NCBI GenBank assembly: GCA_041611735.1
Contig: JBFIML010000048.1
Span: forward strand, 1 to 29,934
Reading direction: 5' to 3'
DNA length: 29,934 nucleotides
Origin: Myxococcota bacterium
Lineage (GTDB): Bacteria; Myxococcota_A; UBA9160; PR03
The stretch's first letter is position 1; each line of letters opens with the position of its first letter. Made by a program: the position numbers and the translations under genes. Positions 770-18,068 of the stretch are shown one piece after another. The notes below the pieces were generated by a model. The model was not told the DNA's origin and did no database searches. It saw nothing but the letters and a program-made list of their open reading frames with translations.

Positions 770-1159
770 CTAGTGATGCTCGCCGGCGCCGGTGTGCCCG
801 GCGGCGGCGGCCGCCGCCGCCGCCTTCCAGGACGGCTTCTCCCACTGGGTTCCTTCGGACTTCATCACGTCGGGCGCCACGCCGGCGAAGAAGAGCAGCA
901 TGAAGACCAGGCAGGTGGCGACCAGGTAGGTGACGTAGCGCCGGGCGACGTTGAGGTGCATGAAGTTGCGGGCCACCAGGTAGGCCTTCACCACCGCGAT
1001 GCCGAAGGCGGTGATCAGCGTGACCACGCGGATCCCGATCATCGGACCCACGATGCTGATGACCAGCAACACCAGCAGGATCGCGTAGATCCGGGTGTAG
1101 TTGGGATGGTGGCCGACGTCGTATTCGTGGGTGTAGTGCTCGTCGAGAGTCTCGTTCAT
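770..1159 (-). CDS. Cytochrome c oxidase subunit IV family protein
   Basis: Only the 3' part of track ORF 770..1687 is protein-like (MNETLDEH...). It has three hydrophobic helices and the KAYLVARNFMHL motif typical of prokaryotic subunit IV. Confidence 0.85.
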   Translation of the reverse strand: MNETLDEHYTHEYDVGHHPNYTRIYAILLVLLVISIVGPMIGIRVVTLITAFGIAVVKAYLVARNFMHLNVARRYVTYLVATCLVFMLLFFAGVAPDVMKSEGTQWEKPSWKAAAAAAAAGHTGAGEHH

Positions 1160-1176
1160 GACGGGACCGTCCTGGT

Positions 1177-1752
1177 TCACTTGGCGATGTAGAGAAGCGG
1201 GAAGAGAAAGATCCAGACGATGTCGACGAAGTGCCAGTAGATCCCCACCAGCTCGACGCGGTGGAGATCCACGTTCTTCGCCGCACTTCGGGCCACGATG
1301 GCGATCACGATGATGCCGGCGATCACGTGGGAGGCGTGCAGCCCGGCGGCCGTGTAGTAGAACGACCAGAACGTACTGGCCGTGATCGTGAAACCATGGC
1401 TGATCTCCATGGTCCACTCGTAGCTCTTGACCAGCAGGAAAATCGCCCCACCGGCAAAGGTGAGCCACAACATGCGGGCGGCCCGAGGGCCGTCGCCCTC
1501 CTCCGCCGCCTTGTGGCCCAGCACCGCGAAGTAGCTCGAGGTGAGCAGCACGAAGGTGTTGAAAGCGCCGATCGGCATGCTGGTGTGCGCCGCCTGTTCG
1601 GACCAGGCATCGTGCGCCAGGCGGTGCATGATGTAGGAGGCCAGCAGCCCCCCGAAGATCACGATCTCCGAGGCGATCAGCCACCACACGGCCAGTCGGC
1701 CGGTGGGCATCCCCGCGGTTTCACGGGTAGTCGCAATCGGTCGGGCAGACAT
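1177..1752 (-). CDS. ctaE: Heme-copper oxidase subunit III, short form (second copy)
   Basis: Start MSARPIAT at 1752 with GAGGAG upstream. Motifs WWLIASEIVIFGGL, NTFVLLTSS, KSYEW, FYYTAAGLHASHV, YWHFVDIVW. Confidence 0.9.
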   Translation of the reverse strand: MSARPIATTRETAGMPTGRLAVWWLIASEIVIFGGLLASYIMHRLAHDAWSEQAAHTSMPIGAFNTFVLLTSSYFAVLGHKAAEEGDGPRAARMLWLTFAGGAIFLLVKSYEWTMEISHGFTITASTFWSFYYTAAGLHASHVIAGIIVIAIVARSAAKNVDLHRVELVGIYWHFVDIVWIFLFPLLYIAK

Positions 1753-1760
1753 GGGCTCCT

Positions 1761-3455
1761 CTACGCCGGCTCGTTCTGGGGCCAGTAGTCCGACTTGCGG
1801 CCGGGCACGCTGTACTCGTAGGGGCCGCGGTAGACGGTCGGAAGCTCCTTCCAGTTGCCGTGGGGCGGCGGCGAGTCCGCGGTCCACTCCAGTGTGTTGG
1901 CCTGCCAGGGGTTCTTGGGGGCCTTCTCGCCCCGGATCAGACTCGCGATGAAGTTGTAGAGGAACACGACCTGGAAGCCCAGCATCACCAGCAGCGCCGA
2001 GGTCGCCAGCACCCGCACGGGCTGGTAGGCCGCCAGGTCCGGATAGTTGGTGAAGTCGTAGATGCGTCGGTGCTGGCCGGCCAGCCCCAGCACGAAGAGC
2101 GGGATGAAAATCAGGTTGAACGGGATGATGGTGCCCCAGAAATGGATCTTGCCCAGCCTGTCGTTCATCATTCTTCCGAACATCTTCGGGAACCAGTAGC
2201 TGATTCCGGCGTAGAACCCGATGATCGTGATCGGGAAGAAGGTGTAGTGGAAGTGGGCCAGCACGAAGTAGGTGTCGTGCATGTAGATGTCTTCGCCGCT
2301 GGCGCCCAGGAAGATGCCCGTCACGCCGCCGATCAGGAACTCGGCGATGAAGGCGAGGGCCCACAGCATCGGCGTGTTGAGGGTGATGGATCCGCCGTAC
2401 AGCGTGGCGATGTAGACGAACATCATCTCGGCGATCGGGATCGAGATCAGCAGCGTCGTGACCGTGAACACGTGGGCCATGCGCGGATCGATGCCGGCCA
2501 CGAACTGGTGGTGGGCCCACACCGTGAAGGAGAGCACGCCGGTCGCGAACACGGTGTAGAGGATCGTGCGGTAGGCAAAGAGCTTCTTGCGCGCGAAGAC
2601 GGTGATGATCTCCGCCACGATGCCGAGCGTGGGCAGCAGCACCACGTACACCTCGGGGTGGCCGAAGAACCAGAACAGGTGCTGCCAGAGCACTGGGTCG
2701 CCGCCCCGCTGGGGGTCGAAGAAAGCGGTCCCGAGGTTCTGGTCGAAGAGCAGCATGATGGCGCCCGCGATGAGGGGCCCCACGGACGCCATGAACAGGA
2801 TGCTGGCGATGACGATCATCCAGACCACGATGGGGATGTCGTACATCTTCATTCCGGGCGCCCGGGAGTTCATGGCGGTGGTGACGAAGTTGATGCCCCC
2901 CATGAGGAAGGCCACGAATTCGAGCGCCACGGCCAAGACGAAGAGCGTCGAGCCCAAGGGAGTCAGGCTGTACGCGCCGATCGAGGAGAGGGGTGGGTAC
3001 ATGGTCCAGGCGCCGGCGAAGCCGCCCCCGGGCACGAAGAACGAGATCAGCAAGACGACTACGCTGAGCAGGAAGACCTGGTAGGAGAGCCGGTTCAGCC
3101 GCGGGAACACCATGTCGTCGCAGCCGAGCATGAGCGGGATCAGGTAGTTGCCGAAGGCGGCCAGCAGGACCGGCATGGCCACCCAGAAGATCATGATGGC
3201 GCCGTGGTTGGTGATCAGCGCGTTGTACTCGTTGGGCGAGACCACGCCGAACAGCGGCACCTCGATGCCCGGGAAGGCCAGCTGCATGCGGAAGACGTAG
3301 GCGAAGAAGCCGCCGATCAGGCCCATGAAGAGGCCCGTGAACATGTACTGCATGGCGATGATCTTGTGATCGGTCGAGAAGAGGTACTTGCGGACCCAGC
3401 CCTCCTCGTGATGACCGGCTTCTTCGTGACCGTGGGAGGGAACGGTCTCGGCCAT
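1761..3455 (-). CDS. ctaD: Cytochrome c oxidase subunit I, A1-type, with non-canonical K-channel
   Basis: Start MAETVPSH at 3455 with GGAGGAG upstream. Motifs STDHK, TNHGAIMIF, DMVFPRLN, FFGHPEVY, VWAHH, HDTYFVLAHFHY, HRR: all six metal-ligand His plus the cross-link Tyr are present. Confidence 0.95.
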   Translation of the reverse strand: MAETVPSHGHEEAGHHEEGWVRKYLFSTDHKIIAMQYMFTGLFMGLIGGFFAYVFRMQLAFPGIEVPLFGVVSPNEYNALITNHGAIMIFWVAMPVLLAAFGNYLIPLMLGCDDMVFPRLNRLSYQVFLLSVVVLLISFFVPGGGFAGAWTMYPPLSSIGAYSLTPLGSTLFVLAVALEFVAFLMGGINFVTTAMNSRAPGMKMYDIPIVVWMIVIASILFMASVGPLIAGAIMLLFDQNLGTAFFDPQRGGDPVLWQHLFWFFGHPEVYVVLLPTLGIVAEIITVFARKKLFAYRTILYTVFATGVLSFTVWAHHQFVAGIDPRMAHVFTVTTLLISIPIAEMMFVYIATLYGGSITLNTPMLWALAFIAEFLIGGVTGIFLGASGEDIYMHDTYFVLAHFHYTFFPITIIGFYAGISYWFPKMFGRMMNDRLGKIHFWGTIIPFNLIFIPLFVLGLAGQHRRIYDFTNYPDLAAYQPVRVLATSALLVMLGFQVVFLYNFIASLIRGEKAPKNPWQANTLEWTADSPPPHGNWKELPTVYRGPYEYSVPGRKSDYWPQNEPA

Positions 3456-3457
3456 GG

Positions 3458-4195
3458 CTACTCCTCCCGCGCCTGCGGCCTGGCGGCCGCGACGATCGGG
3501 GTCGGGGATTGCCCGGTCTGCTGCTGGATCCAGGCGGCGTGCTGGGCCGGCGTCTCGATGTGAATGCGGGCGCCCATCAGCCCGTGGCCGATGCCGCAGA
3601 TCTCGGCACACTGGATGTCCCACTCGCCGGTCCGGGTCGGCGTGAACCATCCCGTGATCACGCGGCCTGGGATGGCGTCTTGCTTGAGACGGAACACCGG
3701 CACCGAGAAGCTGTGCAGCACGTCCTTCGACTCGAGCTTGTAGTGGTAGAGGGTGTCGACTTCCAAGTGGAGCTCGTTCACCTTGGCGATGTCGTCCGGC
3801 GTGTCGAGGATCCGGTCCGGTCCCGGGTGCACGAACGTCCAGGCCCACTGCTGGCCGATCACCCGCACCGTCTGCTGCGGCTCGGGCAGGGCCTGCTTCA
3901 CGTCGTACCAGACGCGCACCGCGGCCACCACGATGACGACGTCGAAGACCAGCACGGCCAGGTGGGGATAGGTGATCCACTTCTTCTCGCTCTTCTGCTC
4001 CCCGGCGATGTACTGGGCCGGCACCCCCTCCCGCTTGCGGAAACGGAAGATCAGCCAGAAGAAGATCACCTGGCTGGCCACGAACCAGATGCCGACGGAG
4101 ACGAAGATCAGCGTGAAGAGGCCGTCGATGTCCCGGGCGTAGGTCGAGGCGGCCGGGACGAGACCGTCGATCATGGAAGGCAGGCGTTCGAGCAT
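3458..4195 (-). CDS. ctaC: Cytochrome c oxidase subunit II (CuA), no fused cytochrome c
   Basis: Two TM helices, GQQWAW, DVLHSF, KQDAIPG and the CuA motif CAEICGIGHGLM. The start could be the Met at 4174. Confidence 0.93.
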   Translation of the reverse strand: MLERLPSMIDGLVPAASTYARDIDGLFTLIFVSVGIWFVASQVIFFWLIFRFRKREGVPAQYIAGEQKSEKKWITYPHLAVLVFDVVIVVAAVRVWYDVKQALPEPQQTVRVIGQQWAWTFVHPGPDRILDTPDDIAKVNELHLEVDTLYHYKLESKDVLHSFSVPVFRLKQDAIPGRVITGWFTPTRTGEWDIQCAEICGIGHGLMGARIHIETPAQHAAWIQQQTGQSPTPIVAAARPQAREE

Positions 4196-4222
4196 GATGC
4201 TTTCGTCCGTCCCCGGTTGTGG

Positions 4223-4327
4223 TTACAGGATGAAGAGGAAGACCACGGCGATGAACGTCCCGACGCCCGCCATGCTGATCAGGAAGGTACGCAGCGCCAG
4301 ATCCTCTGCCGAGCGCGCTTTTGCCAT
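4223..4327 (-). CDS. 34-aa single-helix membrane microprotein
   Basis: MAKARSAEDLALRTFLISMAGVGTFIAVVFLFIL. GGAGG lies 4 nt before the ATG, and the ORF fills the gap between the cytochrome c and subunit II genes. Confidence 0.7.
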   Translation of the reverse strand: MAKARSAEDLALRTFLISMAGVGTFIAVVFLFIL

Positions 4328-4335
4328 CGAACCTC

Positions 4336-4971
4336 CTACTTCGCCTGGCCGCCGGAAAGGGTCATGATGTAGGCGACGACGTCTTTCATGGCCTGCTCGT
4401 CCTGGAGCGTAGAGGCCATGCCCCGCATGATCTGGGCATTCATGTTGGCGGGGTTCGCGGCCCGCACCCCGGACTTGTAACGCTGGAGCGAGGAAAAGAG
4501 GTACCAGTCGCTGGCGTTGTGCAGGGCCGGCGCCTTCAGGGTCTCGTTGCCGACGCCATCGACGCCGTGGCAGGCGGCGCAGGCGCCGTAGAGGGTGGCG
4601 CCACGCTGCGGATCGCCGCCCTCGACGACGGGTTCCGGAAACACCGGCGGCAGGCCCGCCACGTAGGCGGCCACGGCCCGGATCTCGCCGTCGCTCTTGA
4701 GCGCGCGGGCCATGGGGTGCATCCGAAGCCCGGCCACGTCCTCGGGGTGGATGCCGCGCAGGCCGCTCTTGAAGTTCTCGACCTGGGCGACGACGTACCA
4801 CTCCTGGAGGCCCGCGATCGAAGGAGCCAGCACCAGCGGGTTGCCCTCGCCCCGCGCCCCGTGGCACTGGACGCAGAGCTCGAAGAGCTCGGCGCCGTCC
4901 TGCGCGGCGGCCGGCCCCGCCAGCACGACCGCGGTCAGGGCCAGGGCCGCGAGATGCCTGATCGCCAGCAT
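4336..4971 (-). CDS. Periplasmic diheme class I cytochrome c (c4/c553-like)
   Basis: Signal peptide MLAIRHLAALALTAVVLAGPAAA|QD, two heme motifs CVQCH and CAACH, and axial-Met segments LRMHPMA and IMRGMA. Confidence 0.92.
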   Translation of the reverse strand: MLAIRHLAALALTAVVLAGPAAAQDGAELFELCVQCHGARGEGNPLVLAPSIAGLQEWYVVAQVENFKSGLRGIHPEDVAGLRMHPMARALKSDGEIRAVAAYVAGLPPVFPEPVVEGGDPQRGATLYGACAACHGVDGVGNETLKAPALHNASDWYLFSSLQRYKSGVRAANPANMNAQIMRGMASTLQDEQAMKDVVAYIMTLSGGQAK

Positions 4972-5039
4972 GGGGTATCCCGTCTGTGGTGTTCCGTCCG
5001 CGGGCTCCACGTCGTCGCCCGCTGGAATGAGTTTCGCCG

Positions 5040-5056
5040 GCAGGGAGTTAGCCAAA
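5040..5056 (-). promoter_or_regulatory. Possible sigma54-type -24/-12 element upstream of the cytochrome c/oxidase genes
   Basis: Minus strand TTTGGCTAACTCCCTGC has GG-N10-GC spacing about 70 nt before the ATG at 4971. It is only a partial match to TGGCAC-N5-TTGC. Confidence 0.25.
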
Positions 5057-5124
5057 GGCCGCTCGATTCTCAAGACCCGAGGGGGACCTGGGGTCAGCTT
5101 TGCGACCCGGCGAGGCAAAGAGCC

Positions 5125-5559
5125 TCAGTGCGGGGCCGGATTCACGTGGTAGAGGAGCACGTAGATCAGGACGCCCGTGCCCGAGACGTACATCCAGATG
5201 GGCCAGGCCACCCGGGCGAGGCGACGGTGTGCCTCGTCGCGCCGGGCGAGACCGAGACGGATCAGGAGGATGGCCAGCACCGGGACCGTCGCCGCCAGGG
5301 TCACATGGCTGAAGAGGATGGCCAGGTAGAAGGTCCGCACCCCCCCCTGGCCGTGGAACGGCGTGCTTTCGAAGCCCCGCCAGGCCTTGTGGAGCACGTA
5401 CAGGACCAGGAAGAGGGACGAGGCGGCGAAGGCGCTCCCCATCGCCCGGCGATGGGCGTCCACGTGCCCGCGCCGGATGCGGACCAGGCCGAGGATCAGG
5501 AGCGTCGCTGCCAGGGCGTTCAGGCTGGCGTTCAGCGCCGGCAGGAAGGAGAGATCCAC
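5125..5559 (-). CDS. DUF420 (YozB-like) membrane protein, oxidase-associated
   Basis: LPALNASLN, HRRAM, FLVLYVLH, YLAILFSH, HRRLAR, WPIWMYVSGTGVLIY match the DUF420 pattern. Confidence 0.88.
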   Translation of the reverse strand: MDLSFLPALNASLNALAATLLILGLVRIRRGHVDAHRRAMGSAFAASSLFLVLYVLHKAWRGFESTPFHGQGGVRTFYLAILFSHVTLAATVPVLAILLIRLGLARRDEAHRRLARVAWPIWMYVSGTGVLIYVLLYHVNPAPH

Positions 5560-5563
5560 TGCG

Positions 5564-6076
5564 CTATCCGGACGTCCGGATCCGGAGCCGATCCGTGTCG
5601 GGATCGTAGGTCACCAGCAGGACGCTACCCGGGGCGAGCCTCACCGTCTCCTCCAGGACCAGCGGGGCGCGCAGGCCTTGCGGGGCAGGCCCGTCGGGTT
5701 GCGCCGCGAAGCGCACCGTGAGCCGGTGCTCGCCGGGCGCCACGCGAAGCTCGCGAAAGACGTAGGCCGGCCGCTCGCCGCGCACGCCCGCCGGCTGGAT
5801 GCGCGCGTCCAGGCGCGTCTCGCCGTCCAGCGTCACCTGGAGCAGGAAGGGCAGCGTGCGTCCCTCGCAGATGCGCGGACGCCGCATGTGGGGCGGCAGC
5901 TTGGCCAGCTCCTCGGCGCTGGGCTCCCGGCACTCCTCGATGCGCTCGGGCAGCGCCCGCCAGGAGAGCCGGATGCGCGCGTCGTCCCGGGTCTCCACCG
6001 CAAAAGGCAGGCGGGAGCACAGGGCCAGGGCCAGGGCGAGTCCCAGCGCGACCGCGGCAGCCGCCAGCACCCTCAC
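5564..6076 (-). CDS. Membrane-anchored hypothetical protein coupled to the cytochrome b fusion
   Basis: GTG 6076 overlaps the upstream TGA (GTGA). It has an N-terminal hydrophobic helix, then IRLSWR...EECR...LPPHMRRPRICEGR and a beta-rich C-terminus. Confidence 0.75.
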   Translation of the reverse strand: MRVLAAAAVALGLALALALCSRLPFAVETRDDARIRLSWRALPERIEECREPSAEELAKLPPHMRRPRICEGRTLPFLLQVTLDGETRLDARIQPAGVRGERPAYVFRELRVAPGEHRLTVRFAAQPDGPAPQGLRAPLVLEETVRLAPGSVLLVTYDPDTDRLRIRTSG

Positions 6077-7641
6077 GAGGCCTCCGCCCGGGGCCGCTCG
6101 CACTCGAGCTCCACCTCGACGCGCTCCTCCGCCGGCTCCTGCTCCAGCGCCTCGATGGTGCGGCGCAGCTCCGCCAGCGCCTGCAGGACCACGCGGCGCT
6201 CGCCCTCGCCGGCGTAGACGACCCCGAGACGTCGGCGGTCCACGCTCTCGCGCAGCTCTGCCTCGCGGCCGTGGTGGAGCCGTTCCTGGAGCCACTTGGG
6301 GCCCTCGCGGCCCCAGCAGTCCCGGGGCGGACAGCTGGCCACCAGCACGCCGCCGGCACCCGAGCGCAGCAGGAACTCGATCACGGACGTGTGCAGGTGA
6401 CCGGCGCAGGTCACCGGGTGGACCAGCGCCCCGTCCACCGTGTCGCGCTCGGCGAGCCGGCCCGCGCCGCGGCGGCAGGCCAGCAGCACCACGTCGAGGG
6501 CGGCGGGGCGGCGCTGGTTCGCGAAGGCGCGGGCCCGGGCCAGCTCGTCGCGGCCGGTCTCGAGCGGGGGCCCCACCGCCATGGGCGCGCAGGAAGCCGT
6601 GCAGATGCCGCAGCTCACGCATAGCCGGGGGTCCACCTGGGCTACCCGGCGGGCCAGCTCCCCGGCCAGCTCGAGCATGGAGATGGCTCCGTAGGGGCAG
6701 TCCAGGGAGCACTGGAGACAGCCCGTGCAGAGGCGCTCGGAGGAGGCGGAGGGAGCCGGACGCTGCCCGCGGGGCGGGCGCGTCCACCAGGGCACGAGCG
6801 TGAGCAGGCCGGCGAAGCCCAGGAACAGCAGCCAGGCGGTCGCGGGCGCCAGCACACGGCTCGCGGGGAGCCAGAAGGCATAGAAGACGTCGAGCTCCAC
6901 CGTGCCGGGGACGCTCAGGGGCTCCGCCTTGGGCCCGAGCGGCGCGGGGACGAGCAGCGAGACGACGACGAGCGCCGCCAGGCTCCCCCAGAGAAGCCCC
7001 CGCGGCGGGAGGAGCACCGGCCTCGCCAGCCGCGAGACGTGGATCCAGAGCACCAGCGCGAGACCCACGGGAAGCGCGATGTGGAGGAACAGGTTCAGGA
7101 AGAAGAAGGCGCTCGGGATCGGGCGTTCGCCGACGAAGGCGCGCGCCTGGGGCTCCGAGAAGATGGGCAGCGCGTCCATCAGGCGCGCCCCCTCCACGGC
7201 GAGGACGAGCGCCTGTTCGTCCCAGAGCATTACGTAGCCGGTCCAGCCGCACACGAAGGTGCCGAACAGGAGCACCAGGCCGCTCACCCAGGCCAGCGTG
7301 CGCGGACCCCAGCTGCGGTGCTGGAGGAACATGCGCAGGGCGTGCAACCCGGCCGCCGCCACGGCGAGGTCCGCCGCGTAGCGATGCAGGGCACGGATCC
7401 AGCGCCCCGCCCAGACCTGGCCCTCCAGGCGGACCATGGACTCGTAGGGGCCGCCGATCCGGTAGAAGAGCAGCAGGTAGAGCCCGGTGGCGAGCATCAC
7501 CACGAAGCCGAGCACGGCCAGGGTGCCCGACTGGTAGAGGGGGTTGTAGCGCCAGCCGTAGAGGCGATTTGCCACGGCGTCGGCCCGGGCCAGAGGCCTC
7601 CGAAAAAGCGCGCGCGAGGCGTCTCCGAGTCTCCCCTTCAT
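6073..7641 (-). CDS. Fusion: cytochrome b/b6-like domain + 2x[4Fe-4S] ferredoxin + MvhD/FlpD-like [2Fe-2S] domain
   Basis: Heme-ligand His in RALHRY, GLHALR, FLHIAL, WIHVS, plus GWTGYVMLWD. Ferredoxin motifs CTGCLQCSLDCP and CVSCGICTASC. MvhD-like LAC...VTCAG...GAGGVLVASCPPRDCWGREG. Confidence 0.88.
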   Translation of the reverse strand: MKGRLGDASRALFRRPLARADAVANRLYGWRYNPLYQSGTLAVLGFVVMLATGLYLLLFYRIGGPYESMVRLEGQVWAGRWIRALHRYAADLAVAAAGLHALRMFLQHRSWGPRTLAWVSGLVLLFGTFVCGWTGYVMLWDEQALVLAVEGARLMDALPIFSEPQARAFVGERPIPSAFFFLNLFLHIALPVGLALVLWIHVSRLARPVLLPPRGLLWGSLAALVVVSLLVPAPLGPKAEPLSVPGTVELDVFYAFWLPASRVLAPATAWLLFLGFAGLLTLVPWWTRPPRGQRPAPSASSERLCTGCLQCSLDCPYGAISMLELAGELARRVAQVDPRLCVSCGICTASCAPMAVGPPLETGRDELARARAFANQRRPAALDVVLLACRRGAGRLAERDTVDGALVHPVTCAGHLHTSVIEFLLRSGAGGVLVASCPPRDCWGREGPKWLQERLHHGREAELRESVDRRRLGVVYAGEGERRVVLQALAELRRTIEALEQEPAEERVEVELECERPRAEAS

Positions 7642-7683
7642 TGCGACTGCATGCTAAGAGAAGTGACCAACGGGAGGTACCTC

Positions 7684-7872
7684 ATGGGCGATCCGCATGC
7701 GCGCCCGCCCGAGCGTCCCGGCGGCGAGCCGCCGGAGGAGATCCCGCTGGGACAGCGGCTGCTGGACAGCCCGTTCCTGCTGCTCGTGGCCTGCATGGTG
7801 GTGATGTTCGTCTTCTTCACGGGCTGGGGACTCGTGGAGATCTTCACCCTCCCCGAGGCCCCGCTTCCCTGA
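7684..7872 (+). CDS. 62-aa single-helix membrane protein, probable small subunit of the adjacent heme-copper enzyme
   Basis: ATG 7684 with GGGAGG upstream. MGDPHARPPERPGGEPPEEIPLGQRLLDSPFLLLVACMVVMFVFFTGWGLVEIFTLPEAPLP. Confidence 0.75.
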   Translation: MGDPHARPPERPGGEPPEEIPLGQRLLDSPFLLLVACMVVMFVFFTGWGLVEIFTLPEAPLP

Positions 7873-7891
7873 CGGCGGGGCGAGGAACGTC

Positions 7892-8464
7892 ATGGCCACC
7901 TACCAAACCGGGATCCAAGCGCCCCAGGGCGTGTGGTGGAAGCCCGTCCACGGCAGCGAGAAGATCTGGGCCGCCATCGCCTTCGCCTGGTGCATGGTGC
8001 TCTTCGCGATGATGCCGCTCTGGCACCTGCGCGGCGGGCAGAACCCCTCGGGCATCCGTCACCGGGTCGAGCCCGCGGCCTACTCGGCGCGGGTGCGGGA
8101 GTTCATCGCGCAGTACCAGGTGGGGACGGACGGAGGCTTCCCGGTGGTGGAGCCTCCGCCCGGAAGCCACGTCTACCTGCAGGCCGCCATGTGGTCCTGG
8201 ACGCCGGTGCTGCGGCTCCAGCAGGGCGCCGAGTACATCCTCCACCTCTCCTCCGTGGACGTGAACCACGGCTTCCACCTGTTCCCCCTGAACGTGAACT
8301 TCCAGGTGGTGCCGGGCTACGACTACGGCCTGCGCGTCACCCCCACCGCGGCGGGGGAGTTTCAGATCATCTGCAACGAGTTCTGCGGCGTCGGGCACCA
8401 CCTGATGGTCGGCAAGGTCGTGGTGGTGCCTCCCTCGCTCGCCGCCGCGGAGGGAGCCCGATGA
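7892..8464 (+). CDS. CuA-containing subunit II, single TM (B-family/eNOR type)
   Basis: One TM helix, HLSSVDVNHGF and the CuA motif CNEFCGVGHHLM. Confidence 0.92.
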   Translation: MATYQTGIQAPQGVWWKPVHGSEKIWAAIAFAWCMVLFAMMPLWHLRGGQNPSGIRHRVEPAAYSARVREFIAQYQVGTDGGFPVVEPPPGSHVYLQAAMWSWTPVLRLQQGAEYILHLSSVDVNHGFHLFPLNVNFQVVPGYDYGLRVTPTAAGEFQIICNEFCGVGHHLMVGKVVVVPPSLAAAEGAR

Positions 8465-10185
8465 AGGCGGAGCTGCGCACGTGTCCGGCGACGGGGCTGC
8501 GCGTCCACGACCAGGCCGACGCGCTCATCAAGGCCCATGCGGTGGTGGCCACGGTCGCCCTCCTGGTGGGCGGCGTGGCCGCCATCGGCGTGCTGCTCAC
8601 GCGCTGGCAGGCCGTGCACCTTCTGGACGTGGTGTGGTTCTACCGGCTGCTCACCGTGCACGGCATGAACATGCTGATCTTCTACATCATCTTCTTCGAG
8701 ATGGCGGTGCTCTACTTCGCGTCGGCGGTGCTCTTGAGCTGCCGCATCCCGGCGCCGAAGGTGGGCTGGCTGGCCTTCGGGTTGATGGTCGTCGGGACGC
8801 TCCTGGTCGAGTGGACCATGTTCACGGGGAAGGCGGACGTGCTGTTCACGTCGTACGTGCCCCTGCGCGCAGAGCCGCCCTTCTACCTGGGTGTGATCCT
8901 CTTCGCGGTGGGCGCCCTGGTGGTGGTGGGCCACTTCTTCGCCATCCTTGTGGTGGCGAAGCGCGAGCGCACCTACACGGGCTCCGTGCCGCTGGTGACC
9001 TTCGGAGCGCTGACCGCCGCCATCATCGCGGCCGTCACGCTCCTGCACGGGGCCATCGTCTACATCCCGACCTGGCTCTGGTCCATGGGCTTGATGAACA
9101 TCGACCCGGAGTTCTACCGGCTCGTCTGGTGGGGGCTCGGACACTCGTCGCAGCAGATCAACGTCGCCGCCATGGTGTCGATCTGGTACCTGCTCGGCGC
9201 GCTCACGGTGGGCGGCGTCGTGCTCAACGAGAAGGTGAGCCGCGGCGCCTTCGCGCTCTACATCCTCTTCATCTCCATGGCCTCGGCGCACCACCTGCTG
9301 GTGGACCCGGGCTTCGGCCCCTCCTGGAAGGTCTGGAACACCAGCTACTTCATGTACATGGCCGTGCTGGCCAGCATGATCCACGGCTTCACGGTGCCCG
9401 CCGGCGTGGAGATGGGCCAGCGGCTGCGGGGCATGACCGCGGGGCTGTTCGGCTGGCTGCGGCACGCGCCCTGGGGCGACCCGGGCTGGAGCGCGCTCGT
9501 CTTCTCGGTGGTGATCTTCGGCTTCGTGGGCGGCATCACCGGCGTAACCTTCGGGACCGAGCAGATCAACATCATCGCCCACAACACGCTGCGCATCCCC
9601 GGCCACTTCCACGCCACGGTGGTGGCGGGCACGGCACTCGCCTTCATGGGGGTCACCTACTACGTGATCCCGCTGATCTTCCGGCGCGAGATCGCGTTCT
9701 TCCGGCTGGCTCAGATCCAGCCCTACCTGTTCGCGATCGGCATGACGATCTTCTCGATCGCCATGACCTTCGCAGGCACCTTCGGAGCGCCGCGGCGACA
9801 CTGGGACATCACGTTCTCCGGGGCCCCCTTCCAGGTGGAGTTCTCGCCGGCCGTGGACCTCGTGATCGGCGTGATGGCCGTGGGCGGCATCGTGGGGATC
9901 GTGGGCGGAGCGATCTACATCCTGGTGACGGTCGTCTCGGTCTTCTTCGGCAGGCGCCTGGGGCCGGAGGAGAGCGGGGTCGGCGCCCACGGCAAGGGGC
10001 TCCCGCTCGGGATCGTGCAGCCCCCGCGCGCGCTCGGGCCCGGCGACGACGACACGACGCTGGCGCGCCACCCGCTCGGACACGTGCCGGGGACGATGGT
10101 GCTGGTGATCGTCTTCCTGGCGGCCTTCGTGGTCTACTACTTCGTCAACTGGAAGCTGCTCTCCGTGGTGTGGAAGGTGGGCTGA
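8461..10185 (+). CDS. Heme-copper superfamily subunit I lacking the active-site Tyr; probable eNOR-type nitric oxide reductase
   Basis: ATG 8461 overlaps the subunit II stop (ATGA). His ligands in TVHGMNM, GHSSQQIN, SAHHLL, PGHFHAT; PRR present. The H+4 position is Gln instead of Tyr. Confidence 0.85.
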   Translation: MKAELRTCPATGLRVHDQADALIKAHAVVATVALLVGGVAAIGVLLTRWQAVHLLDVVWFYRLLTVHGMNMLIFYIIFFEMAVLYFASAVLLSCRIPAPKVGWLAFGLMVVGTLLVEWTMFTGKADVLFTSYVPLRAEPPFYLGVILFAVGALVVVGHFFAILVVAKRERTYTGSVPLVTFGALTAAIIAAVTLLHGAIVYIPTWLWSMGLMNIDPEFYRLVWWGLGHSSQQINVAAMVSIWYLLGALTVGGVVLNEKVSRGAFALYILFISMASAHHLLVDPGFGPSWKVWNTSYFMYMAVLASMIHGFTVPAGVEMGQRLRGMTAGLFGWLRHAPWGDPGWSALVFSVVIFGFVGGITGVTFGTEQINIIAHNTLRIPGHFHATVVAGTALAFMGVTYYVIPLIFRREIAFFRLAQIQPYLFAIGMTIFSIAMTFAGTFGAPRRHWDITFSGAPFQVEFSPAVDLVIGVMAVGGIVGIVGGAIYILVTVVSVFFGRRLGPEESGVGAHGKGLPLGIVQPPRALGPGDDDTTLARHPLGHVPGTMVLVIVFLAAFVVYYFVNWKLLSVVWKVG

Positions 10186-10186
10186 G

Positions 10187-11089
10187 ATGGGCGTGGCAGC
10201 CCTCTACGCGCTGTTGGCCGTGACGGCGGGATGGTGGGCCCTCGCCCTTTGGCCCGTGCCCGAGGCCCCGGAGTGGCTGGCCCGCACGCGCTGGGTGTGC
10301 TTCAACGCCGCGCCCAACGGGCTCCCGGACGTCTCCGGCTGGCTGCTGCTCGTCGGGCAACCGATCGGGATGCTGGCGGTCCTCATGGCGGGCTGGGGTC
10401 GCGCGGTCCGCTCCGGACTGCGCGCGCTCGCGGCGCGAAGCGCCGGGCGCACGGCCCTCGGGGCGACGGGCCTGCTGCTGGTGGCGGGCCTCGCCCTGGC
10501 GGGCGTGCGCGTGACCACGGCGGAGCGCAGCGAGGTCTTCGCCCTGGGTCAGGGGGCCCCGCCCCTGGACGGGTGGCCGCGCCTGGACCGCGAGGCCCCG
10601 GCCCTGGGCCTGGTGGACCAGCACGGCGAGCGCCTCGAGCTGGCCCGGCTGCGAGGACGACCGGCCCTGGTCACCTTCGCCTTCGGGCACTGCGGGAGCT
10701 TCTGCCCGGCCCTCGTGCGGCAGACGCTCGAGGCCCAGCAGCAGCTGCGCGCGCGGGCGGCTGCCGGAGAGACGCAGGCCACGCGGATCCCGCGCGTCGT
10801 CATCCTGACCATGGACCCGTGGCGGGACACGCCCTCGCGTCTGCCGCACCTGGCGAAGCACTGGGGCGTGGACGAGGACGGGTTCGTGCTCTCGGGCCAG
10901 GTGGACCAGGTGAACCGCGTGCTCGACGCCTGGGGGGTCGCCCGCAGCCGCGACGCGCAGAGCGGCGAGGTCACCCATCCGCCGCTCGTCTACGTGCTGG
11001 ACGCCTGGGGACGCATCGCCTACGGCGCCACCGGGGACGTGGCCACGATCGTGGCGCTGGTGGAGCGCTCCCAGGGGGACGCTTCGTAG
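10187..11089 (+). CDS. SCO family copper chaperone with N-terminal membrane domain
   Basis: LVDQHG, FAFGHCGSFCP (CxxxC), DPWRDTP and the conserved His in VTHPPLVYVLD. The N-terminus has about three hydrophobic segments. Confidence 0.88.
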   Translation: MGVAALYALLAVTAGWWALALWPVPEAPEWLARTRWVCFNAAPNGLPDVSGWLLLVGQPIGMLAVLMAGWGRAVRSGLRALAARSAGRTALGATGLLLVAGLALAGVRVTTAERSEVFALGQGAPPLDGWPRLDREAPALGLVDQHGERLELARLRGRPALVTFAFGHCGSFCPALVRQTLEAQQQLRARAAAGETQATRIPRVVILTMDPWRDTPSRLPHLAKHWGVDEDGFVLSGQVDQVNRVLDAWGVARSRDAQSGEVTHPPLVYVLDAWGRIAYGATGDVATIVALVERSQGDAS

Positions 11090-12006: not shown

Positions 12007-12579
12007 TCAGAGCGCGGCGACGTACCCGGCGAGTTGCTCGCCCACCACCAGGACGGGCTGCGCGCTGCGCCGGGCCCGCCCCATGAGCAGCGCCCCTTCG
12101 AAGGCAGCGACGATCAGCGTGGCGGCCTGCTCGGCCCGCGCGCGGTCGGCGAACGCCGGCTCCAGGGCCTCGGCGGTCTGGCGCTGCCAGTCGTCGTAGG
12201 CCTCGATGCAGGCCCCGGCGAGGGGCGGGTACTCGGGGACGCTCTCCAGGGTGAAGGCCGCCGCCGGGCAGCCCTCGGTGAAGTCGGTCTGCTCCAGCCA
12301 GCGCGCCAGGCCGCGGGCGAGCTTGCGGACGAAGGCGGCGGGGTCCCGGGCGCGCGCCCGGGCGGAGCCGATCAGCTCCCCTACCTCCCGGGTCGAGCCG
12401 CGCACCGCCTCCACCGCCAGCTCGGGCTTCCCATGCGGGAAGTGGAAGTAGAAGGATCCCCGGGGGGCTCCGCTCTCCTCCAGGATCTGGGCCAGGCCGG
12501 TCCCGTGATAGCCCTGGCGTTGGAACAGTCGAGAGGCGGTCTGGATTGCCTTCTGGCGGGCGTCGGAGCGGCGTGCCAT
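12007..12579 (-). CDS. TetR/AcrR family regulator (LmrA/YxaF-like)
   Basis: LFQRQGYHGTGLAQIL...APRGSFYFHFPHGK HTH, GCP motif, FEGALLM. Confidence 0.92.
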   Translation of the reverse strand: MARRSDARQKAIQTASRLFQRQGYHGTGLAQILEESGAPRGSFYFHFPHGKPELAVEAVRGSTREVGELIGSARARARDPAAFVRKLARGLARWLEQTDFTEGCPAAAFTLESVPEYPPLAGACIEAYDDWQRQTAEALEPAFADRARAEQAATLIVAAFEGALLMGRARRSAQPVLVVGEQLAGYVAAL

Positions 12580-14561: not shown

Positions 14562-17500
14562 TCACACCACCAGCAGGATGCCGGTGGCGGCTTCGCCGGT
14601 GGCGGTGCGCACGGCCTCCACGTAGAGGGCCACCTGCGCCACGTAGACCGGCCGCTGGGAGGCCAGCTCCCGGTCGGTCTTGAAGTCGATCACGGTCCAG
14701 AGGGCGACGGCGCCGGACTTCTCGCGGAAGGCCAGGTCGACGACGCCCTCGGCGAGGATGCCGTCCGGTAGCCGCAAGAGGACCGGGGTCTCGCGACGGC
14801 AGTCGCCGCGCCGGGCGGCGGCGGCGGCCCGGCGCAGGAGCGGATGGGCCAGCGCCGCGTGGGCGGCGCGGGCGGCGGCCTCGATCTCCTGCTGGGAGGC
14901 GCCCACCAGACGGCCGTGCATGCGCGCCGCCGCGCCGACGCCGGCCGCGTCGGCGTCCAGATCCACCGTCGCGAGGACGGCGTGAACGAGCGTGCCGAAG
15001 CGACGCCCGCCCGGACGCCCGGTGCGCTCGGACGCCACCTCGTGGACGGCGACCTCGCCCTCCCCTGCGGCGGGTTGCTGCTTCGCCAGGTCCACCACCC
15101 GCGCCACGCGGATCGATTCGACGCCGCCGCGCTCGAGCCTCTCCTGGCGGCGCTGCTGCCACGCCGCGTGGGCCCGGATGCCGGCCTGGGAGCGCGTTCC
15201 GCCGGCATCCGCCTGCAGGATCCGCTGCTGGCGCAGGCCCACCCCCTCCTCCACGTCGAGCGCGAGAACCGCCGGGTCCCACCAGACGACTTCGTGCTCG
15301 CCGGCCTCGGGACGCACGAGGCCGGGCCGCACCGAGCCGCCCGGGCCCCCGCTGCAGGCGTCCGGCCGCTCGAGCACCGAGTCCGGGCCGAAGGCCGGAC
15401 ATCCGGCCGCAGGCTGGGAGTCGCGGCGCTTCTCCGGGGCCGGATACAGCACCGGATCCAGCATCCCGAGCCAGCGTTCGTCGGGGCGGCCGTCCCGGTC
15501 GCCGATCACCGGCACGATCAGGAGATCGCGCGCCCGGGTGGCGGCCACGTAGCTGAGCCGGATCGACTCCTCCCGGTCGTGGCGCCGCTCCCGCTCTTCG
15601 GCGTCGCGCAGGTCGTGGGGCACGCAGCCGCACAGGGGCTCCGCCCAGACCCCGCGCGCCGCGTCCACGAAGCGGGTCGGGTTGCGGCCCACCAGGTTGC
15701 AGGTCGGGTCCGCCAGCACCACCACCGGAAACTCGAGGCCCTTGGCCTTGTGCACGGTCATGATGCGCACCCCCTCGGTGCCCTCCTCCACCACCGGGGC
15801 GTCCTGGGCCTCGCCGCGCTCGGCCTCCGCCTCCAGGTGCTCCACGAAGGCCCGGAAGGAGGGCGCTCCCCTGGCCTCGAAGCGGCGCGCCACGTCCACG
15901 GTGCGCAGGCAGTTGGCCAGCGCCTGCTCGCCGGTGGGCCAGATGGCGATCCCGGCGTGGGCGCGCACGGCGGCCAGCAGCCGCGCGATCGTGTCGGCGA
16001 TGGGGCGGTGGTTGCGCCGGCGGTGCAGGCGCCCCAGGCGCTCGAGGGCCTCGGCCACCTCGCGCTCCGGCGCGTCCAGCTCCGCCAGCAGCGCGGGCGG
16101 GTGCGGCCGCAGAGTGAAGAAGCGGCCGACCCGGTGGCGATAGGCCAGCAGCGCGTCGTCCCCCAACGCGAAGAGAGGCCCGCGCAAGCTGGCGTAGACG
16201 CGCAGCTCGTCGTCGGGCCACTCGATGGCGCCCAGGGCGTTGCGGATGGCCAGCACCTCCTCGCGGTCGTGGAAGGAGCGCCCGCCCACCAGCACGTGCG
16301 GCATGCGGCGCGCCTCCAGGGCGCGCACGTAGGGACGTGTCACGTCGCGTTCGAAGCTCCTGAAGCGGCGGAACAGCAGGCAGACGTGCCGCGCCCGGAC
16401 GGGGACCGACTCCCGCGTGATGGGATCCTGCACGGTCCAGCCGCTCTCCTGCACCAGCCAGGCCACGAAGGCGCCTACCGCGTCGGGACAGGACTCCTCG
16501 ATCTTCCAGTGCGCGACCTTGCCGTAGTCCGCGTAGGGCCGGGGCACGGGCAGCGCCACCAGGGACGGGCGGCCCGCCACCTCGTCGCGGAAGCGCTCCA
16601 GGGATACGTAGTCCGCCTGGCTGCCGTCCTGGCTCGCAGTGATCACCGGCGCGAAGGCCGCGTTCACGGCGGCCTGCAGCGGCGGCAGCGCCCGGAAGCT
16701 CGTGCTGAGCTGGAGGACGTCCGCGCCGCCCGCAGCGAGCTGGCGCTTCACGGCCTCGTAGGTCATGACGTCGGCGCGGCGGAAGCGGTAGATGGACTGC
16801 TTCGGATCGCCCACGATGAAGAGCTTGCCGGGCACGACGGCGACCCGACGCCAGTCCGTCGTGGCGGGATCGTCTGCCGCCAGCAGCAGGATCAGCTCCG
16901 CCTGCACGGGGTCGGTGTCCTGGAACTCGTCCACGAAGAAGTGGGTGAAGCGGCGCTGGAACTCGCTGCGCACGACGGCGTCGCTGCGCACCAGGTCCCG
17001 GGCGCGCACCAGGAGGTCCAGGAAGTCGAGCTTCCCGGCCCGCGCCTTGAGCGCCTCGTAGGCCCTGACCGCCGGGCGCAGCTCCTCGCGCAGACGGGCG
17101 GCCAGGTCCGCCTCGGAGGCCTCCAGGAGCTCGTCCAGCCGTTCCTTGATCGCGTCCCGGCGCGCCAGCACGTCGTCGCGGTGGAGCTCGCCGAACGAGG
17201 TCCGCGCGCTTCCCTTCCAGGTCCAGCCCACCTTGTTGGGCCCGGAATTGCGGCGGGCGAGGCGCCAGAGGTCGCTCTCCAGCCCGTCGTAGTCGCGCCC
17301 GCCGCGAACACCCTCCACGAGCCGCGTCTCCGCCACGAAGTCGCCCAGGTTGCGCAGGTTCTTGGCGAGCCAGTCGTCGGCCCAGCTCGCCTGGTGGGCG
17401 AGCGCGGCGACCGCCGCCAGCTCCTCCATCACGGCGTCGATGGCGGCGTCGCGGTCGAAGCCCGGGTCGCGTCGCCATGCCGCCGCGAAGTCCCGGTGCT

Positions 17501-18068
17501 CCGCCAGCTTCGCCACCGCGGCGCGGACCTGCTCGCGGGGGCCGATCTCGCCGCGGTTGCGCGCCCGGCGGCGCAGCAGGCGTCGCACGCCCTCGGGCGG
17601 GTCGGAGAGCACGCCCTGGAACCAGCCCTCGAAGGCGCGGTCCAGCAGCCGCGCCGATTCCTCCTCGTCCGCCATCTCGAACAGGGGATCCACGCCGGCC
17701 TCGATGGGGCGCTCGTGCAGCAGGTCCGCACAGAAGGCATGGATGGTCATGATGCGCGCCAGCTCGAGCTGCTCGAGGGCGCGGTCCAGGTGGGTGCGCT
17801 CGGCGGCTTCCGCCGCGCTGCGCGCGGTCTCGATCTCGGCACGCAGGCGCAGCTTCATCTCCCCGGCGGCCTTCTCGGTGAAGGTCACCGCCACGATGCG
17901 GTCCAGGGTTCCGAGGCCAGAGCGCAGGAGCGAGACCATGCGGCCCACCAGGGCGGTGGTCTTGCCCGTCCCGGCGGCCGCCTCCACGAAGAGGGTGGCG
18001 TCGAGGTCGTCGCGGATGCGGGCGCGGGCCGCCGCGTCCTTGAGGGGCTTGCGCCGCGCCGCGCTCAC
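14562..18068 (-). CDS. addA: UvrD-type helicase/RecB-type nuclease AddA
   Basis: GTG 18068 overlaps the addB stop. EAAAGTGKTT, VTFTEKAAGEM, VDEFQDTD, VGDPKQSIYRFRRAD, MTVHKAKGLEF, YVAATRARD, and nuclease GVVDL...IDFKTD. Confidence 0.92.
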   Translation of the reverse strand: MSAARRKPLKDAAARARIRDDLDATLFVEAAAGTGKTTALVGRMVSLLRSGLGTLDRIVAVTFTEKAAGEMKLRLRAEIETARSAAEAAERTHLDRALEQLELARIMTIHAFCADLLHERPIEAGVDPLFEMADEEESARLLDRAFEGWFQGVLSDPPEGVRRLLRRRARNRGEIGPREQVRAAVAKLAEHRDFAAAWRRDPGFDRDAAIDAVMEELAAVAALAHQASWADDWLAKNLRNLGDFVAETRLVEGVRGGRDYDGLESDLWRLARRNSGPNKVGWTWKGSARTSFGELHRDDVLARRDAIKERLDELLEASEADLAARLREELRPAVRAYEALKARAGKLDFLDLLVRARDLVRSDAVVRSEFQRRFTHFFVDEFQDTDPVQAELILLLAADDPATTDWRRVAVVPGKLFIVGDPKQSIYRFRRADVMTYEAVKRQLAAGGADVLQLSTSFRALPPLQAAVNAAFAPVITASQDGSQADYVSLERFRDEVAGRPSLVALPVPRPYADYGKVAHWKIEESCPDAVGAFVAWLVQESGWTVQDPITRESVPVRARHVCLLFRRFRSFERDVTRPYVRALEARRMPHVLVGGRSFHDREEVLAIRNALGAIEWPDDELRVYASLRGPLFALGDDALLAYRHRVGRFFTLRPHPPALLAELDAPEREVAEALERLGRLHRRRNHRPIADTIARLLAAVRAHAGIAIWPTGEQALANCLRTVDVARRFEARGAPSFRAFVEHLEAEAERGEAQDAPVVEEGTEGVRIMTVHKAKGLEFPVVVLADPTCNLVGRNPTRFVDAARGVWAEPLCGCVPHDLRDAEERERRHDREESIRLSYVAATRARDLLIVPVIGDRDGRPDERWLGMLDPVLYPAPEKRRDSQPAAGCPAFGPDSVLERPDACSGGPGGSVRPGLVRPEAGEHEVVWWDPAVLALDVEEGVGLRQQRILQADAGGTRSQAGIRAHAAWQQRRQERLERGGVESIRVARVVDLAKQQPAAGEGEVAVHEVASERTGRPGGRRFGTLVHAVLATVDLDADAAGVGAAARMHGRLVGASQQEIEAAARAAHAALAHPLLRRAAAAARRGDCRRETPVLLRLPDGILAEGVVDLAFREKSGAVALWTVIDFKTDRELASQRPVYVAQVALYVEAVRTATGEAATGILLVV

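Follow-up and report, generated by a model that had tools for sequence, protein, structure and literature searches.

A Rieske-less cytochrome b–iron-sulfur gene pair beside an eNOR operon in a Myxococcota genome, and its linkage to eNOR

Results

Modules of the cytochrome b–FeS protein

The stretch of DNA analysed here (the window) comprises 29,934 nucleotides, positions 1 to 29,934 of contig JBFIML010000048.1 from a Myxococcota bacterium (assembly GCA_041611735.1). On its minus strand, a gene at 7641..6073 encodes a protein of 522 amino acids that joins a two-haem cytochrome b to two [4Fe-4S] motifs and an FlpD/MvhD-like domain (referred to below as the cytochrome b–FeS protein), and a second gene at 6076..5564 (the tail gene) follows it directly. 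A preliminary description of the window, written from the sequence alone, had singled out the first of these genes as a three-domain fusion; all three modules were confirmed, but a fourth, carried by the tail gene, had been missed. The two genes, and the modules of the larger product, are as follows.

6073..7641, minus strand: gene for the cytochrome b / 2x[4Fe-4S] / FlpD(MvhD)-like protein, 522 amino acids (P0001), from the open reading frame, Pfam matches and an AlphaFold2 (AF2) model
6757..7641, minus strand: membrane module, residues 1-295, a cytochrome b of the bc1/b6 type, for which six transmembrane helices are predicted; its haem ligands are H86/H100/H187/H201, the cd-loop holds W140-D141 and the ef-loop reads L-D251-V-F-Y, from fold and sequence matches
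6574..6744, minus strand: 2x[4Fe-4S] ferredoxin module, predicted to be cytoplasmic, residues 300-356, from Fer4 matches and eight cysteines
6142..6504, minus strand: FlpD/MvhD-like module, predicted to be cytoplasmic, residues 380-500, with C389, C412, C437 and C442, from the match to PF02662
5564..6076, minus strand: tail gene, 170 amino acids (P0271), a transmembrane helix and a predicted periplasmic beta-sandwich, from homology to the C-terminus of relatives and an AF2 model

In Pfam searches, Cytochrome_B (PF00033) matched residues 34-204 of the 522-residue protein with 51.4 bits against a cut-off of 27.2, the Fer4/Fer4_7 families matched residues 303-356 (Fer4_7 with 31.9 bits against a cut-off of 27), and FlpD (PF02662) matched residues 407-499 with 34.9 bits against a cut-off of 22.3, spanning positions 30-122 of the 123 in the profile. 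Residue conservation was determined from an alignment of 128 relatives that are 27-70% identical to the window protein. The four haem ligands, H86, H100, H187 and H201, align with those of cytochrome b6 and are invariant (128/128), as are seven of the eight cysteines in the two CxxCxxCxxxC ferredoxin motifs (C305/308/311/315 and C341/344/347/351), the eighth, C308, being present in at least 90% of the relatives. Of the cysteines in the FlpD region, C389 and C412 occur in every relative and C437 in at least 90% of them, while C442 is kept in at least 90% of an 18-sequence alignment; these four residues are candidate counterparts of the cysteines that hold the [2Fe-2S] cluster of MvhD. The four-histidine dihaem cytochrome b, the paired ferredoxin motifs and the MvhD-like cysteine pattern of the preliminary description were thus all borne out. 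Two families with narrower definitions scored below their cut-offs: the ExtP equivalog NF040969 reached 95 bits (cut-off 290), and HdrA2 (NF040770) reached 60 bits (cut-off 1100), with only the C-terminal module, residues 301-502, being aligned.

Where the Qo motif is expected, the protein reads LDVFY (residues 250-254), in keeping with what had been noted beforehand. The canonical motif is PEWY/PDWY; the acidic D251 is kept in 121 of the 128 relatives, but the position of the Qo tryptophan is W in only 50 of the 128, and the consensus of the relatives is P-x-D-W-F, compared with E-L-D-V-F in the window. Three further Qo-type signatures are G135 (128/128), W140 (125/128) and D141 (127/128).

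Fold and topology

The AF2 model of the cytochrome b–FeS protein, computed from the 128-row alignment, has a mean predicted local distance difference test score (pLDDT) of 95.4 and a predicted template modelling score (pTM) of 0.92. Its six long helices follow the order A-F of cytochrome b, and the fold includes helices E-F and the ef loop. When models were superposed with VIA-align, residues 30-342 fell on the bcc-complex cytochrome b of Corynebacterium (7q21_B; Z 24.5, root-mean-square deviation 2.5 A over 256 residues), residues 17-291 on mouse cytochrome b (7o37_C; Z 22.9) and residues 28-208 on cytochrome b6 (7r0w_I; Z 16.4). Foldseek returned 71 matches at E <= 0.001, and among the matches listed all are cytochrome b or b6 (e.g., 2yiu_A, E 1.6e-7); the closest solved chain by sequence is cytochrome b6 6rqf_I (phmmer, E 5.8e-15). 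As cytochrome b filled the lists of the whole-model fold searches, the cytoplasmic half was compared by sequence only. The ferredoxin module weakly matched the C-terminal ferredoxin of HdrA (5odc_A, residues 581-630, E 6.6e-6) and the FlpD-like module weakly matched MvhD (5odc_D, residues 37-129, E 0.0038); designed ankyrin repeats, the top matches when the cytoplasmic half was searched against solved structures, were rejected as spurious.

In bc1 and b6f, the N-terminus of cytochrome b is cytoplasmic. On that footing, the Fe-S modules that come after helix F would lie in the cytoplasm, while the beta-sandwich, past one more helix, would be periplasmic. The Fe-S modules would attach on the inner face, where bc1 has its Qi site. 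The protein resembles the cytochromes of Rieske/cytochrome b complexes (bc1, bcc, and b6 plus subunit IV of b6f) in its fold through helix F, its four histidine ligands, its b6-like 'WD' cd-loop and its acidic ef-loop residue. Unlike those complexes, the window unit has only six helices, has an Fe-S chain fused at the end of helix F, and comes without a Rieske protein and without cytochrome c1 or f; consistent with the preliminary description, Pfam scans of the window found neither a Rieske nor a cytochrome c1 gene. Furthermore, Cys35 of b6, which binds haem cn on the Qi side, is Gln here ('YCLGG' aligns with 'YQSGT').

The tail gene as fourth module

The tail gene and the upstream cytochrome gene overlap, the GTG start codon of the former sharing bases with the stop codon of the latter (GTGA). 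The tail protein aligns at 41% identity (E 4e-30) with residues 578-739 of P0122, a relative of 748 amino acids. Among the 150 representatives obtained at 50% clustering there are 104 relatives of at least 600 amino acids, and in 99 of these the tail module is fused to the C-terminus; on sequence comparison, the window genes 7641..6073 and 6076..5564 are therefore the split form of a four-module protein. To place the pair in context we used 80 related loci from species-representative genomes, which were found with a 7-sequence alignment and whose neighbouring genes were identified by tblastn with the window proteins. The tail gene comes next after the cytochrome gene in 78 of them.

Six residues of the tail, C49, H63, M64, C70, G97 and G115, are invariant in 64 sequences. 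Among the 104 long relatives, 63 have the complete C..HM..C loop and 86 have the HM, the Cys pair having been lost in some of those that keep His-Met. The AF2 model of the tail (pLDDT 94.9) consists of a helix at residues 2-21 and a beta-sandwich, for which a Foldseek search of the pdb database gave zero matches at E <= 0.001, and in a wide search with VIA-align the highest Z was 7.5, for generic beta-sandwiches and nothing specific. The tail matched no Pfam or NCBIfam family, and in the ESM Atlas it falls only into 'hypothetical protein' clusters. An N-terminal helix followed by a periplasmic domain is also the layout of the Rieske protein. A predicted complex between the tail (residues 28-170) and the periplasmic domain of subunit II of the neighbouring eNOR (residues 46-190), built with alignments for both, had a score of 0.00 and a mark of 0.32, a result that weighs neither for nor against binding.

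Linkage to eNOR

Divergent from the cytochrome gene, the window carries a four-gene operon on the plus strand:

7684..7872, plus strand: first gene of the operon, a 62-residue membrane protein with a single helix, read from the sequence and without a Pfam family
7892..8464, plus strand: eNOR subunit II, a cupredoxin with CuA ligands H126, C161, C165, H169 and M172; the match is CoxB-like, below the cut-off
8461..10185, plus strand: eNOR-type haem-copper subunit I (P0272), in which Gln stands in for the cross-linked Tyr of oxygen reductases (PF00115, E 4.6e-54)
10187..11089, plus strand: last gene of the operon, an SCO1/SenC copper chaperone (PF02630, E 1.2e-19)

The criterion for an eNOR is that Gln replaces the cross-linked Tyr of oxygen reductases (PMC8756737). 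In the window, H228-S-S-Q-Q232 of subunit I aligns with G-H-P-E-V-Y of the A-type subunit I encoded in the same stretch, and the five CuA ligands of subunit II are invariant in 68 sequences; by these residues, operon 7684..11089 is of the eNOR type. According to the passages of PMC11214002 that deal with activity, NO reduction by an eNOR has been demonstrated for the R. marinus enzyme only. The gene for the 62-residue protein has a GGGAGG ribosome site and lies 42 bp from the start of the divergent cytochrome gene. A homologous cluster of open reading frames occupies the same position in 61 related loci, and the protein may be a third eNOR subunit. An open reading frame on the opposite strand, 7654..7899, was rejected as a shadow of this gene.

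Relatives of the cytochrome b–FeS protein are numerous. A full scan of 1.84 billion representatives yielded 2,904 proteins at E <= 0.001, of which 399 were at E <= 1e-30, and an indexed search found 2,379 relatives at E <= 0.001 among 8,000 candidates scored. Their source names are limited to 'ferredoxin', 'F420-reducing hydrogenase delta subunit', 'hydrogenase iron-sulfur subunit' and 'cytochrome b N-terminal domain-containing protein'.

We determined that eNOR subunit I or II adjoins the cytochrome gene in 72 of the 80 related loci, and that each of the remaining 8 meets a contig end on at least one side; where at least 5 kb is available on both sides, eNOR is present without exception (42/42). 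The association spans three gene orders, the divergent one of the window (63 loci), a co-directional one (6) and one in which the genes lie downstream (3), and SCO1 is adjacent in 62 of the 80 loci.

The preliminary description had placed the cytochrome gene between two haem-copper enzymes and had proposed that it serves the NO reductase or the oxidase. The position is correct for the window, but only the eNOR side is conserved, and so only the eNOR part of the proposed link stands. Genes from the A-type oxidase side are seldom detected by tblastn at the 80 loci (DUF420 0/80, A-type COX1 2/80, dihaem cytochrome c 1/80), and a tie of the cytochrome gene to the A-type oxidase, DUF420 or the dihaem cytochrome c was rejected, as that arrangement is not conserved. 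In the window itself, the A-type cytochrome c oxidase operon (770..5559, minus strand; DUF420/CtaM-like, dihaem cytochrome c, COX2, COX1, COX3 and COX4) begins 4 nucleotides past the stop codon of the tail gene, an arrangement seen in 0/80 related loci; here, the oxidase operon and the cytochrome b–FeS genes may share a transcript.

A partnership with heterodisulfide reductase (Hdr) or hydrogenase, to be expected from the usual role of MvhD, had been set beforehand as the point on which the haem-copper assignment should be tested. All open reading frames of the 80 loci were clustered, and the clusters were placed by position, not each being scanned for domains. Those occurring in at least 20 of the 80 loci map to the cytochrome b–FeS protein, the tail, the small membrane protein, eNOR II, eNOR I and SCO1, plus shadow frames, leaving no conserved Hdr, hydrogenase, formate dehydrogenase or Rieske neighbour among them. 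As no other neighbour cluster reaches 20 loci, Hdr, hydrogenase and Rieske genes are not partners, and the Hdr/hydrogenase alternative was rejected in favour of the haem-copper linkage.

Co-occurrence across genomes, which the preliminary description had also put forward as a check, gave the same answer. In a sample of 301 genomes from the window's phylum, strong matches to eNOR I (all at E <= 1e-190) occur in 32 and the cytochrome in 35; each of the 32 genomes with eNOR holds both genes on one contig, within ~3 kb of each other. In the three cytochrome-only genomes the match lies within ~1-2 kb of the start of its contig, and these contigs may have been cut before eNOR. Among 201 genomes from the phylum of a locus labelled Acidobacteriota (L051), there are four strong eNOR matches, each with the cytochrome 1-2.5 kb away (4/4). 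Among 151 genomes from the phylum of a locus labelled Longimicrobiales (L013), 28 have eNOR and the cytochrome accompanies it in 28/28, with both genes on a single contig in 27; in one more genome the cytochrome is present only as a partial copy. Over the three samples, 64/64 eNOR-positive genomes carry the cytochrome gene, 63 of them on the same contig, figures that are counts rather than statistics, since genomes related to one another are not independent samples. The cytochrome and eNOR I also co-vary in their pairwise distances (r 0.85, 39 sequences, with species relatedness uncontrolled). We consider it highly probable that the cytochrome b–FeS protein and its tail are a dedicated redox accessory of eNOR, by whichever mechanism.

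Several individual loci depart from the common pattern. At G438:C6:239612-242498, a haem-copper subunit I that is 35% identical to the window eNOR I has a cytochrome b-only gene ~1 kb downstream, which may be another pairing of a cytochrome b with a haem-copper enzyme. The eNOR I matches in genomes G105, G275, G597 and G613 each contain one in-frame TGA. The cytochrome b–FeS gene at G642:C6:188951-190466 is split into two overlapping frames, and at G631:C1:2067931-2068500 only the Fe-S/FlpD half was found, in a genome without an eNOR match.

Host genome and apparent transfer

The assembly is 95% complete, and the cytochrome b–FeS gene is its only PF00033 match. The only Rieske match in it belongs to a KshA-like oxygenase on another contig. 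As a result, no canonical bc1 or b6f was found in the assembly. Two NrfD-family genes lie elsewhere (contigs C90 and C51), and a Sec-type NosZ scores over its cut-off (contig C29). Neither NirS nor NirK was found in the assembly, and the bacterium may be a consumer of NO and N2O that other organisms produce.

The window cytochrome is 53-61% identical to its counterparts in Gemmatimonadota-labelled loci, compared with 31-40% for most copies in the sample of its own phylum, and the window eNOR I shows the same tendency, with 67-80% identity to Gemmatimonadota-labelled loci, compared with 56-61% in its own phylum sample. The nearest named records to the window locus are labelled Myxococcota or Deltaproteobacteria. 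These sequence identities suggest that the whole cytochrome-eNOR module (5564..11089) was transferred as a block into this lineage.

Such apparent movement of the module between phyla bears on one alternative, namely that the role of the cytochrome is not directly tied to eNOR chemistry, the protein being either a sensor of redox state or NO, or a ferredoxin:quinone oxidoreductase that travels with the eNOR island. A block that appears to move as a whole would suit a passenger, and Fe-S clusters are common as sensors of NO and O2. The adjacency, however, survives three gene orders and several phyla, none of the 64 genomes with a strong eNOR match lacks the cytochrome (0/64), and hitch-hiking would not be expected to last across such divergent lineages; moreover, the Pfam scan of the cytochrome b–FeS protein found no DNA-binding or signalling domain. 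We regard this alternative as very improbable.

Other genes in the window are unrelated to the finding. They include a TetR regulator (12007..12579), a BamB-like beta-propeller (25928..27184) and, at 14562..21308 on the minus strand, an open frame listed at 2,248 amino acids with UvrD-type helicase domains, which is probably over-extended in GC-rich DNA.

Relatives fused to cytochrome c

Two distant relatives, P0227 (792 amino acids) and P0237 (769 amino acids), retain the beta-sandwich but have no Cys..His-Met..Cys loop, and carry at the C-terminus a cytochrome c with a CxxCH motif. The same tail-cytochrome c form, 47% identical to P0227, is encoded in a metagenome locus (L086:4033-9401), where the co-directional gene order is CuA subunit II, subunit I, cytochrome b-FeS-tail-cytochrome c, and a monohaem cytochrome c. 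Subunit I of this locus keeps the Tyr (GHPLVY) and is 30% identical to the window eNOR I. By sequence, eNOR is not the only haem-copper enzyme that the family serves, and a plain electron carrier can form its periplasmic end; the variants therefore indicate that the periplasmic end takes part in electron transfer with haem-copper enzymes.

Together with the linkage to eNOR, these variants would be expected if the unit were a one-way wire, in which a cytoplasmic donor, either a ferredoxin-like protein docking at the MvhD-like domain or NAD(P)H in relatives fused to FAD/NAD domains, sends electrons through the Fe-S chain, haems bH and bL and the tail to CuA, bypassing the quinone pool. In its logic such a wire resembles the electron exporters of the NOX/Fre and MsrQ types. 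The redox order would be downhill, with the membrane potential helping, as established bioenergetics has it, and MvhD-type domains connect proteins electronically in the Mvh-Hdr complex, to which the 5odc matches lead. Relatives with FAD/NADH domains have been described in Alicycliphilus (in the clade descriptions of PMC4122944) and in Ferrigenium (in the operon account of 10.64898/2026.01.22.701106). Against the wire, the strongly conserved Qo-like signatures would be left unexplained, the energy of the cytoplasmic reductant would be wasted, and no donor gene is conserved nearby in the 80 loci. We consider the wire a somewhat doubtful account.

The unit could instead be a maturation factor, a reading that, like a transmembrane wire, the preliminary description had put forward, exporting reducing power to the periplasm for the building of eNOR rather than for its turnover, with Cu(II), the cysteines of SCO1 or CuA, or a special haem or non-haem metal as the target. 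SCO1 belongs to the same conserved module, the invariant Cys, His and Met of the tail are typical copper ligands in general ligand chemistry, and the cupric reductase CcoG/FixG is a precedent for Fe-S membrane proteins in oxidase assembly. The purified eNOR also works without the cytochrome b–FeS unit, as the activity measurements in PMC11214002 indicate. However, the Cys pair is dispensable in some relatives, a chaperone-type reductase would not need the quinol-pocket signatures, and replacement of the His-Met loop by a cytochrome c, with a further cytochrome c downstream, better fits electron transfer during turnover. Detection of such proteins in the proteome of Ferrigenium under denitrifying growth, as given in the preprint's operon account (10.64898/2026.01.22.701106), fits both turnover and maturation. 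On balance, maturation seems unlikely.

Discussion

Of the mechanisms by which the pair could serve eNOR, we tentatively favour, as a possible rather than a probable account, a Rieske-less, bc-type electron module that oxidises quinol, with the Fe-S chain standing in place of a Qi site. A quinol or menaquinol would give up its electrons in the Qo-like pocket, which faces the outer side of cytochrome b. The first electron would leave on the periplasmic side, via or beside the His-Met loop of the tail, for CuA of eNOR, while the second would cross the membrane by way of haem bL and then haem bH, enter the Fe-S chain and go on to a cytoplasmic acceptor; the direction of flow in the Fe-S chain is the least certain of these steps. 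The conserved Qo signatures, the ever-present tail, the linkage to eNOR and the cytochrome c variants all lend support to this arrangement, and we favour it because, of the schemes considered, it puts every conserved part to use. A plain wire is disfavoured because the quinol-pocket signatures would have no role in it, and a pure quinol oxidase because it would not need the b haems and the Fe-S chain.

A number of observations weigh against a bc-type split of this kind. No redox cofactor is evident in the tail, which offers conserved residues only, with the Cys pair dispensable in some relatives that keep His-Met. Fe-S clusters usually lie far below haem bH in potential, and reducing them against the membrane potential is energetically demanding. 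No gene for a cytoplasmic acceptor is conserved near the cytochrome gene in the 80 loci, and the Qo motif of the window, LDVF, is neither PEWY nor PDWF. The two NrfD-family genes of the assembly could belong to another quinol-oxidising complex. In addition, the purified two-subunit eNOR of R. marinus turns over with TMPD (N,N,N',N'-tetramethyl-p-phenylenediamine) plus ascorbate, according to the assays described in PMC11214002; a tight complex is therefore not required for catalysis.

Proposals comparable to the bc-type split have been made elsewhere. For the Rieske/cytochrome b complexes of anammox bacteria, which have an Fe-S/NAD(P) oxidoreductase on the cytoplasmic side, the mechanism outlined in PMC12954380 follows the same concept, with a low-potential branch proposed to run through cytoplasmic Fe-S clusters and to be paid for by a high-potential reaction of nitrogen oxides. 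As portrayed there, the anammox complexes retain their Rieske protein along with multihaem cytochromes c, unlike the window unit; both mechanisms are proposals, and the likeness lies in the concept. The same idea is voiced for Ferrigenium in the part of preprint 10.64898/2026.01.22.701106 that treats its eNOR operon. We can also imagine a bolder form, which we think quite unlikely, of a Rieske-free complex in which a disulfide-stapled His-Met loop, perhaps metal-bound, passes the high-potential electron to eNOR while the b haems push the low-potential electron into the Fe-S chain, making a low-potential reductant, either ferredoxin or NAD(P)H; the cost of reverse electron flow would in that case be covered by NO reduction, with no use of the proton-motive force.

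Parts of the unit have clear counterparts in other systems. Its residues 301-502 match MvhD and the ferredoxin-MvhD module with which HdrA/HdrA2 ends (Mvh-Hdr, PDB 5odc). Unlike in Mvh-Hdr, the window module is tethered to a membrane cytochrome, scores far under the HdrA2 cut-off and has no conserved Hdr, hydrogenase or formate dehydrogenase genes beside it. NarI-NarH, HdrE-HdrD and the dihaem succinate:menaquinone reductases each wire a two-haem cytochrome b with a quinone site on the outer face to a cytoplasmic Fe-S chain. The analogy with these enzymes is functional only: their cytochrome b folds are unrelated, they have no periplasmic partner domain, and their cytoplasmic catalytic subunit is known.

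Two published descriptions come closest to the window protein. Kao & Hunte (2014; PMC4122944), in the passages that define their 'PDWF-FeS' clade, describe a cytochrome b fused to 4Fe-4S and MvhD domains with no Rieske in the cluster, which is the same architecture as that of the window protein. That work is a sequence survey, and its clade passages assign no function and mention neither a link to eNOR nor a periplasmic tail module; moreover, the clade motif is PDWF, compared with L-D-V-F in the window. The second is the bioRxiv preprint 10.64898/2026.01.22.701106, whose operon account reports two 'bc1 chain C-like' cytochrome b/Fe-S genes in the eNOR operon of Ferrigenium straubiae, calls them 'rather unusual', finds the proteins in the proteome under denitrifying growth, and suggests a supercomplex with eNOR and a quinol:NAD+ oxidoreductase. 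The Ferrigenium genes, as presented there, concern one genus, and one of the two proteins has FAD/NADH domains, whereas the gene pair described here is near-universal beside eNOR. The architecture and its presence in one eNOR operon are thus already in print, as far as the relevant portions of these two sources go (PMC4122944; 10.64898/2026.01.22.701106). New here are the relatives that carry a cytochrome c and adjoin an oxidase with the Tyr kept, the apparent transfer of the module and the absence of another cytochrome b from the genome. The preliminary description knew of no characterised example, and our literature searches likewise found none for a cytochrome b-Fe-S-MvhD unit; the eNOR paper PMC11214002, in its passages matching the searched terms, does not mention the cytochrome b–FeS gene.

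In environmental data, eNOR is among the commonest nitric-oxide reductases and a source of N2O, as stated in the distribution passages of PMC11214002. The enzymological parts of that paper cover eNOR's two catalytic subunits, the only ones studied, and a partner present in every eNOR genome examined here is an obvious candidate for electron supply or assembly. The gene pair would also be a marker to improve eNOR calls, eNOR genes being often mislabelled as cytochrome c oxidase (PMC8756737). If the bc-type reading is true, the unit would represent quinol oxidation by a cytochrome b complex that has no Rieske protein and in which Fe-S clusters, rather than a Qi site, form the far end; it would bear on the evolution of the Q-cycle machinery and on whether NO reduction can be coupled to energy conservation or to the supply of low-potential reductant.

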